From a bacterium (GTDB lineage: Bacteria; Babelota; Babeliae; Babelales; RVW-14): DNA of 64,000 nt. The notes under the pieces are model-generated. The model was given only the letters and a program-made list of their open reading frames with translations, was not told the DNA's origin and did no database searches. Below are positions 5,198 through 52,494 of the stretch, in pieces. A program made the translations under genes and the position numbers. The DNA lies in contig JBDRBF010000002.1 in NCBI GenBank assembly GCA_043822925.1, forward strand, positions 1-64,000, read 5' to 3'. Position 1 is the first letter of the stretch; each line of letters begins with the position of its first letter.

Positions 5198-5271
5198 TGC
5201 CTTCTTGAACTCGCCTGCCTGGCCGACCTGTCCTCCGTAGCCACGTATGGCGGAGGTGGGTTTCAGGATTC
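5198..5271 (+). repeat. Degenerate nested palindromic repeat
   Basis: cttcttgaactcg[...cctgtcctccgtagccacgtatggcggaggtggg]tttcaggatt; outer shell resembles 52471-52494. Confidence 0.6.
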
Positions 5272-5430
5272 AGATCTTTTTTAATACATGTTTGAATTTA
5301 GTCCGAGCTGTTATTAAAAATCAAGAAACGAGAGAAATTCGCGCGGTGACGGGGCTTAACTTCGTAGCTTATTGATAGGAGTTACAAAGCTTTTGAGCGC
5401 CGGTTTATTTTGCGGGGCGTTAAAAAGAAA

Positions 5431-5469
5431 GTAGGGCACATGTACGACGTCGTCGTACATGTGCCCTAT
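5431..5469. repeat. GTAG-tagged REP-like hairpin, possibly also the terminator of the mutS-like gene
   Basis: gtagggcacatgtacgac-gtc-gtcgtacatgtgccctat. Confidence 0.7.
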
Positions 5470-5524
5470 GGGTTGGCTTGGCTTTAAAGAGAGATTAAAA
5501 TCAGCATTTAACTGTTGTTATTTG

Positions 5525-49600: not shown

Positions 49601-50042
49601 ACATATTTTTTAAGATTATACCAAAAACTCCTACCACGACGAAGATATCAGCTACATTGAACGTAGGCCAGTACCAAGTTTGCAGGTGGAATTCTAAGAA
49701 GTCGAGCACGGCTCCATATAAAAAACGGTCCACTACGTTTGATAGTGCTCCGGCCAGAACCATTACCTCAAACATGATGTTATGACGATTTTTGAGTTGA
49801 ATTAACGTGTAGATACTAAAACAGACGATAACACACAGGATAAAAGCCGTCAATAAGCTTTTGCCAAGCATTGAATCAAACGATAAAAGGCTCCAGCTTA
49901 CGCCTTTGTTCCAGGCGATTGAAAGATTAAAATAGTCGGTAATTAGTTTTGGTTCTGTTATATATTTTAAGATGCAAAGTTTTGAAATTCGATCGAGCAA
50001 GAAACAGGTAAGAAAAAAGAGTGCGTATAAAAGTTTTTTCAT
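49575..50042 (-). CDS. lspA: Lipoprotein signal peptidase
   Basis: [25 protein letters not shown]. Confidence 0.93.
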
Positions 50043-52420
50043 GATCGTAATTGTGCTCCAATTTTCTCAATAGCTGATATTACGGCAGTTCTGATTTCTT
50101 CTATTTCGTATCGTTCAAGCGTTTTTTCTGGATGTGAGACTCCGAGTCTAAATGTTAGAGACCGTGAATCTGGCCACTCTTCTTTCTCGAAAAAGTCTAT
50201 GAGTTGTACGTTATTAATTAAGTTTGAAGTAGCACGCATATTTTGTTCAAGAGTTTTTGTTGTTAATGTTAGTGGGACAAGGGCACTTATATCAAAATAT
50301 GTTTCTTGAAAGCGAGAAAACGGTTTAAAGTTTTTTGTTTCGACCGGTTCTTGGAGTAAGAAATCACCATTAAGTTCAAAAATAAATGCGTCACTTTCTG
50401 GGAGCATTCCCATTTTGGCCAGGAGTGCTGGGTTGATTTTGCCGGCTGATCCAATAGTTTTTCCGTTAAGTGTTAGATGAGCTGATTGAAAAGGCATGTA
50501 CCAGATGGGATCAGTAGTTGTTATTTTTTTCCAGTTTATATCATGTTTATCAAAACCCAATGCTCCAAAAAGTTGTGAGATCTCTTGTTTCGCTACGTAA
50601 AAATCGACAGGCTTGCGTTTTTCAAAGAATATGCCTGCGATGCTTTTTTGTTCTAGTGCGCAATCGGGATTTGTACTGTTTTTTTGTACGGGCCAGATGC
50701 GTCCAGATTCAAAAAAGTTTATGCTTTCGTGATTGGCGCTATTTTCTTTAATATTTTTAAGTAACCCAGGTATAAGTGATGGGGTTAGGCGATAAAAGAT
50801 TTCTGAGACGGGATTAACAATATGTATTGGCGCTTCTATTTGTATGCCGAGCTCAGTTAAATTTTGTTCGTCGCACAGAGAGTAGTTTTGTTGCTCTATC
50901 ATGTGCGAGCCATAGGCAAGCAGTTGCTTGATTTTTCTCATGCGCATGACGGGAGATAGGTCTGATGGAACGTTAATTCGGCGTGGGAGCTCGAGAGCGA
51001 TTTTCTCAGAGCCGTATGTGCGTACAACTTCTTCTAATATGTCTTCTTTTATTTTGACGTCTTTGCTCGACCGGAACGTTGGCACGGTTATTGTATAAAT
51101 TAGTGGTTTTTTAGATTTTATTGTAACGCCAAATTCGAGTGGAGAAAGTAATTTTTTTATTTCGCCAGGTGTTAATTTGATGCCAGATCTGTTTTCAAGA
51201 AATATATGATCGATTTCTATTGTTTCTTGTGGGGCTGGAGTGCCAACTGAGACTATTTCGTGAGCTGTTTTTATTTTGAGTTTATATTGTTTGGCTAAGT
51301 TAACAAAACGCATGATGGCTTGAATAGCTTGATTTGGATCAAGTGATTTTTCAAATCGAGATGAGGCATCGCTTCTGGTTTTATGTTTGAGCGCCGTCTT
51401 GCGCACGGTGCCTGGGTCAAAGTTTGCTGATTCAAAAAAGAGTGACGTTGTTTGAGCGTTTATAGAATCGTGCAGTCCGCCCATAATGCCGGCTAGTCCA
51501 ATAGCTTTTTTTTCGTCTGCTATAACCAGGTCTTGAGGTGTGAGCGTTAGCTCATTACTATCAAGTAAGATTAATTTTTCGTCTTGTTTGGCCATTCTTA
51601 TAATAATCTTTTTTTCAGCAATTTTTTCTGCGTCATATGCATGAACCGGTTGGGACCAGTCGAGCATGACGTAATTGGTTAGGTCCACAAGACTATTAAT
51701 TGGACGAGCATCAACTTTTAATAACCTGCTCATGATAAAAATATCTGACGGTTTATTTTTAATGGAGGGGATATAAAGCCCGTTAAATATTTTGCATTGT
51801 TTTTGTGCGTTATTTTCTATTATAAATGGCGTTGTTTCTGTCGTTTGTGAGCTTGTATTAAACTGCTTGCTGGTTAGCTTGGCTAAAAATTTCTTCTCAG
51901 GTAATAGGGGCAAATCTAAGAAAGCTGCTATTTCGCGGGCAAAGCCACGGTGTCCCCACATGTCAGGGCGATGAGTGATAGATTTATTGTCTACTTCTAT
52001 GATAATATCTTTTTTTTCAAATTTTGTGCGCCACACGCCAGTTAAGTCTTGAGCGTCAGCGTCTAGGGCTGGAATTAGGCCGGCTTTGTCTAGTCCAAAA
52101 TCAGCCAGGCTTGCCCAAGTAAAAGTTTCTCCTGTCTTTTTAACTAAATAAACACTGCTTTTTGTTTTGGCTAAAACCTGTTCTGTTGGATCTGTTCTTT
52201 GTGATATTGTAACATCTTGTTTTAATTCTGGCACATGTACGGTGGTACTTGTTTGAGTTGTTCTTTGTGCCAAGTAAAAATTATCTAAATTTACTGATAC
52301 ATGGTGAACGTTTTCTATTTCGGCTGTTATTTTGTTAAATTTTGTAGCAATTGTATTAATATCGATGTCTTGCCAGTTAGCATCTATGTGGTCAAATATC
52401 CATGCGATTGAAAGTTTCAT
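50039..52420 (-). CDS. pheT: Phenylalanyl-tRNA synthetase beta subunit
   Basis: [34 protein letters not shown], anticodon-binding C-terminus. Confidence 0.93.
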
Positions 52421-52470
52421 AGTGATCGCCCATTTCTAATCGAAAAATTGGTTTTGTAGGTGTTTGTTTT

Positions 52471-52494
52471 GTCATCCTGAACTTGTTTCAGGAT
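52471..52494 (+). repeat. Un-nested outer-shell palindromic repeat
   Basis: gtcatcctgaacttgtttcaggat. Confidence 0.75.

Follow-up and report, generated by a model that had tools for sequence, protein, structure and literature searches.

We describe short GC-rich hairpins that lie one within another, for the most part in the loop of a recurrent hairpin that we call the shell, in a bacterium of the Babelales (lineage RVW-14, GenBank assembly GCA_043822925.1). The window, i.e. the whole stretch of DNA that was analyzed, comprises 64,000 nt and corresponds to positions 1 to 64,000 of contig JBDRBF010000002.1 (C2:1-64000 in our numbering); the genome has 1.52 Mb in 86 contigs and 37% G+C, and nesting in it reaches three to four levels. 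The shell brackets a gene for a small GIY-YIG nuclease, and its architecture suggests that it is a divergent Ssn-related motif (SRM), the SRM/NTS-type hairpin of this lineage; we read it as the single-strand DNA site of that nuclease. On balance, we are inclined to think that such SRM-type shells receive other hairpin modules ('passengers') strand-specifically in their loops, where these are tolerated, and that the filled shells are copied as units and hit again.

Shell hairpins and their passengers

The shell sequence is TTGTCATCC-CAGA-CTTGA-TCTG-GGATCCAAGTCC, with an 8-bp stem and a 5-nt loop, and its tagged layout is (T)GTCATCC-stem-CTTGA-stem-GGATCC(AAG), where the tags are constant and the stem covaries. 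In the window, empty shells lie at 35261..35295 (plus strand, supported by folding) and, inverted and with the same stem variant CCCAGA, at 35663..35696 (minus strand), forming the left and right brackets of the GIY-YIG gene. Another empty copy, of stem variant CCTGAA/TTCAGG and supported by both folding and census, lies at 52468..52497 (plus). DNA folding gave -7.2 kcal/mol (z -3.4) for the shell at 35263 and -6.2 kcal/mol (z -4.3) for that at 52471.

To count shells in the whole genome, we took GTCATCC[CT]NNN as the left arm and sought the right arm within 160 nt; a census tolerating one mismatch in GTCATCC had returned mostly chance pairs and was replaced by this stricter one. Of 120 left arms, 48 belonged to empty hairpins (32 CCCAGA, 9 CCTGAA, and 5 CCTGGA), 22 enclosed a GC-rich interior followed by the matching right arm, and 2 enclosed an AT-rich interior. 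For the remaining 48, no right arm lay inside 160 nt; no fewer than 14 composites, visibly decayed or stem-inserted, are among them, and the other GTCATCC arms of this group are chance heptamers. Long open reading frames make up 86% of the genome, and 67 of 85 shell left arms lie outside them, the other 18 being deep inside open frames and read through. The shell was present in 14 of 31 related genomes, with copy numbers from 0 to 40 between genera, and had no matches in viral contigs. Across genera the tags and loop are fixed and the stem changes are compensatory (CCCAGA, CCCGGA, CCCTGA, CCCCGA, CCTGAA, CCCAAA, and others). In the genome of another genus (G012), the commonest shell has a G·T stem pair (GGGCTTGATCC) and a rarer form has G-C (GGGCTTGACCC), which may represent a stepwise compensatory route through the wobble pair.

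The passengers comprise at least five non-shell families of GC-rich imperfect palindromes of 25-36 nt: G (CCTGCCCTTCGTAGCCAC...GGGCGTAGTAGGG), H (CCTGTCCGCC...GACGGCTGGA), F (CCGTGCCCGGCGTAGCC...GCGAAGCCTGGG) with its F-like form X, and B1/B2 (CGCTCA-CCC/TGC-TGAGCTTGTCGAAG-GGG/CAT). G, H, F, and X bear GTAG-like tags. The palindromes that serve as hosts also include P1 (GGGGTTAAAACCCC type), K (CGTGCT...AGCACG), E, and R. G gave 28 matches, of which one (on contig C9) was false, 19 were nested (in A, i.e. the shell, A2, B1, and B2) and 8 were solo; 9 of the 11 complete F copies were nested and 2 adjoined a shell tail; the 32 complete B copies occurred solo, as head-to-head B1/B2 doublets, as B within B, and as B within shells. 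Each passenger family has 6 to 10 copies deep within open frames that are read through. The families were found with repeat maps at k=12 and a GC filter; at k=10 or 11, A/T-rich words and repeats in coding sequence drowned the maps. Naive repeat counts are dominated by long GC-rich tandem repeats of coding sequence (GCAGATAAAGCAGCGGCA type; C2:97105-98838 and C13:8682-8822 of this genome, G000), which are unrelated to the hairpin families.

A first reading of the window (the sequence-only reading) had named empty shells at 35263 and 52471 and hairpin-filled ones at 5198, 13528, 24122, 34374, 35158, and 43557; all of these exist as it described them. In terms of the families above, the shell holds B at 24122, H at 34374, G at 43558, and F at 35158 and 13528, while the shell at 5198 is degenerate and has an H-type passenger. 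The degenerate shell (CCTTCTTGAACTCG...TTTCAGGAT; 5198..5275, plus) carries a 47-nt passenger. F follows GTCATCCTGA both in a CCTGA variant (13526..13590, minus; -11.9 kcal/mol, z -2.3) and in the shell at 35158..35223 (plus), where it is followed by TCTCGATCTGGGATCC. G follows the loop sequence CTTG in a CCTGGA variant (43555..43616, plus), and the shell with H (34371..34439, plus) lies in frame within holB and is absent from five orthologues. A multi-level composite lies in frame in gpsA (41205..41322, minus), in which B1, interrupted by F, is joined by an inverted B2, a fragment of G, and one arm of the shell, so that the earlier claim of one gpsA passenger interrupted by another was borne out. 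At the 3' end of tmk (34161..34202, plus), a left arm of the shell that lacks its right counterpart is fused to a GGGGTTAAAAACC-type palindrome; the final tmk codons run into this fusion, and the repeat supplies C-terminal residues and the stop region.

Passengers outside shells include a solo G at 20953..20986 (plus; TTTG before, TC after), a solo B2-type copy at 61712..61738 (minus) with the loop/tail pair TGC...GCA, and a solo B1 at 43720..43745 (plus), which is identical over 25 nt to the B at 24138, as had been stated. The F copy at 35634..35662 (minus) does not stand alone, as was first thought, but adjoins the 3' tail of the right-hand shell of the GIY-YIG gene. Two further points needed adjustment: folded alone, the passengers form only weak hairpins (z -0.3 to -0.9), and the families number at least six to eight rather than three.

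Insertion, junctions, and excess over chance

The passengers and composites are insertions. GpsA has about 45 extra residues, and its residues 102-136 were not covered by any match from 26 relatives; the 23-residue HolB segment encoded by the H-filled shell is missing in 5/5 aligned orthologues. Within the window, a segment of about 105 bp is duplicated on both sides of a Y1 transposase cassette, and one copy (24118..24180, plus) carries a 63-nt insertion consisting of a shell with B1 and a 3' tail. The paralogous empty site (23160..23225, plus) reads …TTATCTTGATTT|CTAGAACTTGACC… (…TTATCTTGATTT|CTAGAAC…), and at that very point the other copy holds the composite at 24120; the junction ambiguity is no more than 2 nt. 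In this region (window 23095-24262, with the cassette between the two copies), the duplicated segment corresponds to the 3' end of the neighboring outer-membrane gene with its terminator region.

Target-site duplications, which had been proposed as a check, were not seen at the passenger loop junctions in the in-silico excisions, the shell census, or the paralogous pair; one F copy bears an 8-nt GGATCCAA repeat. The combination of terminal inverted repeats and target-site duplication that defines miniature inverted-repeat transposable elements of the DDE type was not found. Frequent 20-mers served as the words of the excision procedure; they yielded 2151 raw anchors, compared with 86 from reversed words. 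Tandem coding repeats made up most of the raw anchors, and filtering left 68 events, of which about 20 are hairpin nests. Passenger orientation relative to the GTCAT side of the shell was uniform, with 22 forward and 0 reverse.

In the 22 filled shells, the interior starts with CT[TCA]G in 15 cases and ends with A or T in 20, which places the usual break after the fourth loop base and before the fifth (CTTG^A). G sits at one fixed point in at least 17 shells, and the G and H junctions are precise and identical at no fewer than 15 loci. F was always found after CCTG(A); in shells the preceding sequence is GTCATCCTGA, in B1 it is CACCCTG. The entry point of H is CGA^AGC in G and F and GGGGTT^TTAACCCC in P1; H enters K as well and was also found after GGTT, CGAA, and TCGA; a CT[TCA]G-type 5' flank, read by eye, precedes 6 of the 8 solo G copies. 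The differing 5' flanks of H and G at loop sites (CTTG, GGTT, CGAA) argue that structure is favored over sequence. Thus, the proposal that structure rather than sequence is targeted holds in part, since sequence at the junctions matters too: CT[TCA]G^A in 15/22, CCTG(A) before F, and CGA^AGC for H. Most insertions lie at or beside the loop, as first described, but some lie in the 5' stem.

The nesting, which the sequence-only reading had proposed to test against random placement, is hugely non-random and far above chance. A perfect flanking stem of at least 6 bp was found at 10/28 G matches (including the false one on C9) and at 349/20000 random junctions; this test fits G and H but is unsuited to F, which sits at the stem-loop border, and to B, whose host arms are not simple stems (F 0/11, B 1/32). 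Furthermore, 19/27 G copies lie within a recognisable host hairpin, compared with 0.16% of YTYG sites that lie in shell or B loops. The corresponding P values, about 1e-47 for 19/27 and approximately 5e-14 when 6 host classes are set against 8 solo copies, are bounds and not exact, because the copies are not independent. As the shell arms lie mostly outside long frames, a safe-haven effect exists, but it could raise the expectation no more than several-fold.

The composites do not represent one ancestral composite decaying by deletion, which was the outcome that would have undone the nesting proposal. An identical 34-nt G occurs in a CCCAGA shell (C84) and in a CCTGAA shell (C13), the stems of which differ on both arms, and the GGAGCCACTT form of G is present in both CCTGGA and CCCAGA shells. 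About eight host families (A, A2, B1, B2, G, H, P1, and K) take passengers, and three genomes of other genera (G001, G005, and G015), each with its own shell variants, have H/G-like passengers of their own at the same position in the loop, a nest inside a nest among them. Many composites have, on the other hand, been copied as units. An 81-nt insert of G with H inside occurs in a shell at two loci with 1 nt difference, B1 with F inside was found 5-6 times, and the F form GAAGCTTCACGCGAAGCC is found only in B1 and the form GTAGCCTTGTGCGAAGCC only in shells. The paralogous pair shows a whole B-filled shell that moved as one piece. Independent insertion and unit copying thus both occur.

A GIY-YIG nuclease gene between inverted shells

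The sequence-only reading had overlooked that the shell brackets a nuclease gene. The gene at 35325..35630 (plus) encodes a 101-amino-acid single-domain GIY-YIG protein that is predicted to be a single-stranded DNA nuclease of the Ssn family. Its only Pfam domain is GIY-YIG, and no NCBIfam family reaches its cut-off. The genome contains two such genes of 101 amino acids, 75% identical, each lying between inverted shells of its own stem variant, with the paralogue on contig C57, and in other genera 10 of 13 GIY-YIG loci are bracketed by a lineage-specific shell-like hairpin, with 1 ambiguous and 2 unbracketed. Among metagenome loci, 71 had enough flank to be analyzed (G+C 0.27-0.67, proteins 52-65% identical); an exact flanking inverted repeat of at least 12 nt was present in 38 of them, 26 of which contain a hairpin, and several of the flanking hairpins read (C/T)GTCATTCCCGCGAAAGCGGGAATCCA(G/T), at most one base off the published NTS consensus. 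The catalytic residues Y7, Y18, R28, H32, E65, and N84 are invariant.

According to the portion of the Ssn study available to us (Chenal et al. 2025, PMC11893778), Ssn proteins are single-domain GIY-YIG nucleases of about 94-100 amino acids (CDD family cd10448), the arrangement SRM-ssn-SRM is common, and NTS/SRM hairpins, which in Neisseria go by the name NTS/dRS3, bracket ssnA. A 94-amino-acid member binds the hairpin on one strand of single-stranded DNA and cuts upstream of it, and the identity of the loop is dispensable for cutting, as the loop may be deleted or lengthened (PMC11893778, same portion). The shells resemble this system in being directional hairpins in the 20-50 nt range with a 5' tag (GTCAT) and a 3' tag (ATCC), which are constant here, in bracketing as inverted copies a single-domain GIY-YIG gene of about 100 amino acids, and in having many solo copies, matched nuclease and hairpin variants, and abundance in host-associated bacteria. 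They differ in that their stems are AT-richer, their loop is conserved (CTTGA), and about a third of the copies carry other hairpin modules in the loop. Moreover, 18/85 shell arms lie deep in open frames, as opposed to the 2% of NTS repeats inside genes that those passages give for Neisseria meningitidis (PMC11893778). In the main text of that paper, 'nested' and 'inserted' have 0 occurrences each.

In G012 (contigs C20, C8, C1, and C3), the shell-nuclease-shell unit is part of a larger element with an 18-nt outer inverted repeat (TAGACCTCTTCTGAAACC) approximately 80 nt beyond the shells. An internal-deletion derivative that keeps the 3' end of the gene is present in three copies at different loci of that genome, all with the same junction, and the unit therefore transposed after the deletion.

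Candidate movers, alternatives, and known relatives

We consider it somewhat more probable than the opposite that the nests arise as follows. Passengers would be inserted strand-specifically and without target duplication at few recurrent points, in most cases after the fourth of the five loop bases in the shell and in B, and otherwise centrally in other hairpins. The nuclease would need the tags and the stem but not the loop, and a loop-filled shell would hence stay usable; loop insertions would persist, and filled shells would keep multiplying, because the nuclease is proposed to tolerate loop change. The filled composite would then be copied onward as a unit and be open to further hits, giving dolls of up to four levels.

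IS200-like Y1 transposases are candidate movers of the passengers, and single-stranded loops would be the physical insertion target. The lack of target duplication, the single orientation, the short recurrent flanks, and the preference for unpaired loops fit single-strand HUH chemistry. In the window, the Y1 (HUH) gene of IS200/IS605 type at 23456..23887 (plus) scored 82.5 bits against a cut-off of 55 with the IS200 model (NF033573; also PF01797) and 31 bits against a cut-off of 80 with the REP_Tyr_transpos (RAYT) model. It is flanked by the GTAG-tagged REP-like palindrome R on the left (23237..23274, plus) and by an inverted R copy on the right (23972..24020, minus); R has about 8 copies. The genome has four Y1 genes of this type, three of them intact, at C2:23456, C83:55109, and C68:4635, and one broken; the palindromes R, P1, E, and K with H inside flank them. 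The further loci (C83:54600-55750, C68:4300-5400, and C64:2400-3250 of G000, one of them frameshifted) lie in palindrome arrays (CCTATGGTTAAAACCATAGG, TCAGGCGTAATCGCCTGA, CGTGCT...AGCACG) that resemble the REP clusters around RAYT genes.

A number of observations weigh against this account. The published string HGTCWYN(0-2)YYVSBRHN(0-5)WNVSBRGN(0-2)RNCYNB had 1 match in the genome, which is not a shell, compared with 0-4 in shuffles, and shells match it only at 2 substitutions, where the genome gave 832 matches and the shuffles about 1040; the string misses the shells because their stems carry A/T where it demands C/G, and we therefore name the shell a divergent SRM by its architecture and not by the string. 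Some insertions are in the 5' stem of the shell, the base 5' of the passengers is variable, and the closest genomes used for the comparisons are of other genera (GpsA no more than 55% identical). No Y1 gene of the genome has G, H, F, or B as its ends; the only Y1 locus with an H-type passenger nearby is that on C83, and that H is nested in K. The passengers are tied to no particular enzyme in evidence. In G001 (91% complete), where six shell-passenger junctions were matched and five copies read, no Y1 match was found at E<=1e-5 despite the composites. A lagging-strand bias is expected of IS608-type elements; with contig orientation inferred from local GC skew, there was no replication-strand bias (A 36:42, G 14:16, F 10:6, B 23:13; lowest p 0.13). 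The absent strand bias, the variable flanks, and the G001 composites without detectable Y1 do not fit HUH chemistry, and since Ssn is reported to cut upstream of the hairpin, loop insertion is not explained by Ssn alone.

The nuclease could also drive the nesting itself, if nicks made by an Ssn-type GIY-YIG enzyme at single-stranded shells were repaired by template switching or short-patch conversion that draws on other hairpin modules or on filled shells, so that filled alleles 'home' into empty ones. The conserved pairing of nuclease and shell, matched by stem variant, speaks for this, as do the one fixed point of G in at least 17 shells, the composites in G001, where Y1 was not found, and the passenger orientation fixed relative to the GTCAT strand. 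We nevertheless find it rather unlikely: the same passengers sit in unrelated hairpins (P1, K, G, and H) without the GTCAT and ATCC tags, the shell arms offer just 8-13 nt of homology, and opening of the loop by the nuclease was demoted to a rival because, in the available part of PMC11893778, the family cuts upstream of the hairpin and not in the loop. Transposition of passengers would not be needed at all if the mosaics had arisen, in the way that has been proposed for BIME/NIME arrays, from slippage, illegitimate recombination, or hairpin-primed copying among palindromes that lie in clusters, and the empty shells from deletion. Junctions are sometimes imprecise (B lies in shells after AGACTTCG, AGATTG, AGAAG, or AGGAG), there are many decayed composites, and stacked half-sites (L1 L2 R2 R1) could stem from hairpin-templated copying. 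Such an origin is hard to reconcile with the precision of the G and H junctions, which are the same at no fewer than 15 loci, with the 8 solo G copies that keep the same ends in unique DNA, with single composites in frame in single-copy genes far from arrays, and with the uniform orientation, and we judge it improbable.

It is very unlikely that selection on the host maintains the hairpins as elements of its own, such as terminators, RNA stabilisers, or protein binding sites, and that nesting is a functional elaboration of them. The location of most shell left arms (67/85) outside the long frames that fill 86% of the genome would agree with it, and the covariation of the stem shows selection on structure. 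However, the T-run precedes the hairpin instead of following it, the 18/85 shell arms and 6 to 10 copies per passenger family inside open frames are read through, and genera differ in copy number from 0 to 40. Scanning the window against Rfam gave four tRNAs only, and the hairpins match no Rfam family.

The module B extends beyond this lineage. Exact matches to its 19-mer core (CCCTGAGCYTGTCGAAGGG) occur in at least 127 stretches belonging to 15 or more bacterial phyla, and at least 130 contigs of viruses have one as well; the outer stem of the copies varies, and records from Coxiellaceae, Bacteroidales, and Latescibacterota, among others, show B inside B. Four 14-nt B strings had no match in the literature searched. 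In one possible drawing of the B hairpin, an outer stem of 4 bp is followed by tandem G·A mismatches and a single G-C pair below a CTTGT loop; the loop would then be common to B and the shell. Since B is widespread and self-nested in unrelated phyla, one may speculate, with considerable doubt, that unpaired hairpin loops are generic landing pads for cosmopolitan single-strand modules of 25-36 nt, which circulate in bacteria and phages and are targeted by structure rather than by long sequence. If true, these would be the smallest mobile DNAs known, and Ssn-type hairpins would play the two parts of parasite and host within an ecosystem of selfish hairpins arranged in layers.

Nested palindromes as such are already known; what is new is that coding-free modules nest recursively, and at mapped positions, in Ssn-type hairpins. 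To our knowledge, neither nesting nor a nuclease partner has been described for the Rickettsia palindromic elements, which are longer single families. The likeness to them lies in the in-frame placement of the gpsA and holB inserts, i.e. palindromic inserts in housekeeping genes that are read through and missing in orthologues (PMC3733652, in excerpt). REPs within other small palindromes are described in three species in the excerpted text of Di Nocera et al. (2013, PMC3733652). As in the REP/BIME/REPIN systems, to the extent covered by excerpts of Bertels and Rainey (2011, PMC3116915) and PMC3733652, the modules here are imperfect palindromes of 20-40 nt, some of them GTAG-tagged, with head-to-head B1/B2 doublets comparable to REPINs, Y1 genes flanked by palindromes, and mosaic clusters. 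Unlike in those systems, the nesting is recursive over 3-4 levels, involves 6-8 families, and has mapped loop positions; unlike in REP/REPIN-RAYT, the Y1 proteins pass the IS200 model but fail the RAYT model, and the dispersed families G, H, F, and B do not make up the ends of the transposase genes. With IS200/IS605-type transposition the passengers share the lack of target duplication and the fixed orientation, but not the lagging-strand bias.

Small palindromes are also known as landing sites, and as hot spots, of larger invaders: insertion sequences target REPs (in the portion available of Tobes and Pareja 2006, PMC1525189), IS1111 sits in the GTAG REP of QMITE2 (Wachter 2018, PMC5896051, in excerpt), and a filamentous phage integrates into dRS3 (from partial text of Bentley 2007, PMC1797815). 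Those invaders are of kilobase size and have their own recombinase, whereas here non-coding modules of 25-36 nt invade each other. The small dispersed repeats of Nostoc, the subject of work by Elhai et al. in 2008, are reportedly nested in one another. They belong to another phylum, have other sequences and no tagged shell, and we know of no nuclease partner for them. An excerpt of PMC4390886 has Nostoc modules of 21-27 nt inserting at precise points, e.g. SDR5 inside the HIP1 palindrome. Our search of the literature on palindromic repeats of Dependentiae found nothing relevant, and palindromes, miniature inverted-repeat elements, and GIY were unmentioned in a word search of the Babela and Chromulinavorax papers.

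The finding joins work on the Ssn/SRM hairpins (2025), on REP-type palindromes, and on in-frame palindromic inserts, three fields so far kept separate. With 48 empty and at least 22 filled hosts, fixed junctions, and one orientation, it provides a mapped and countable system for the choice of targets by coding-free mini-elements. It also calls for caution, as the published SRM search string misses AT-rich lineages, and it accounts for many odd GC-rich in-frame inserts and spurious small open reading frames in small AT-rich genomes.

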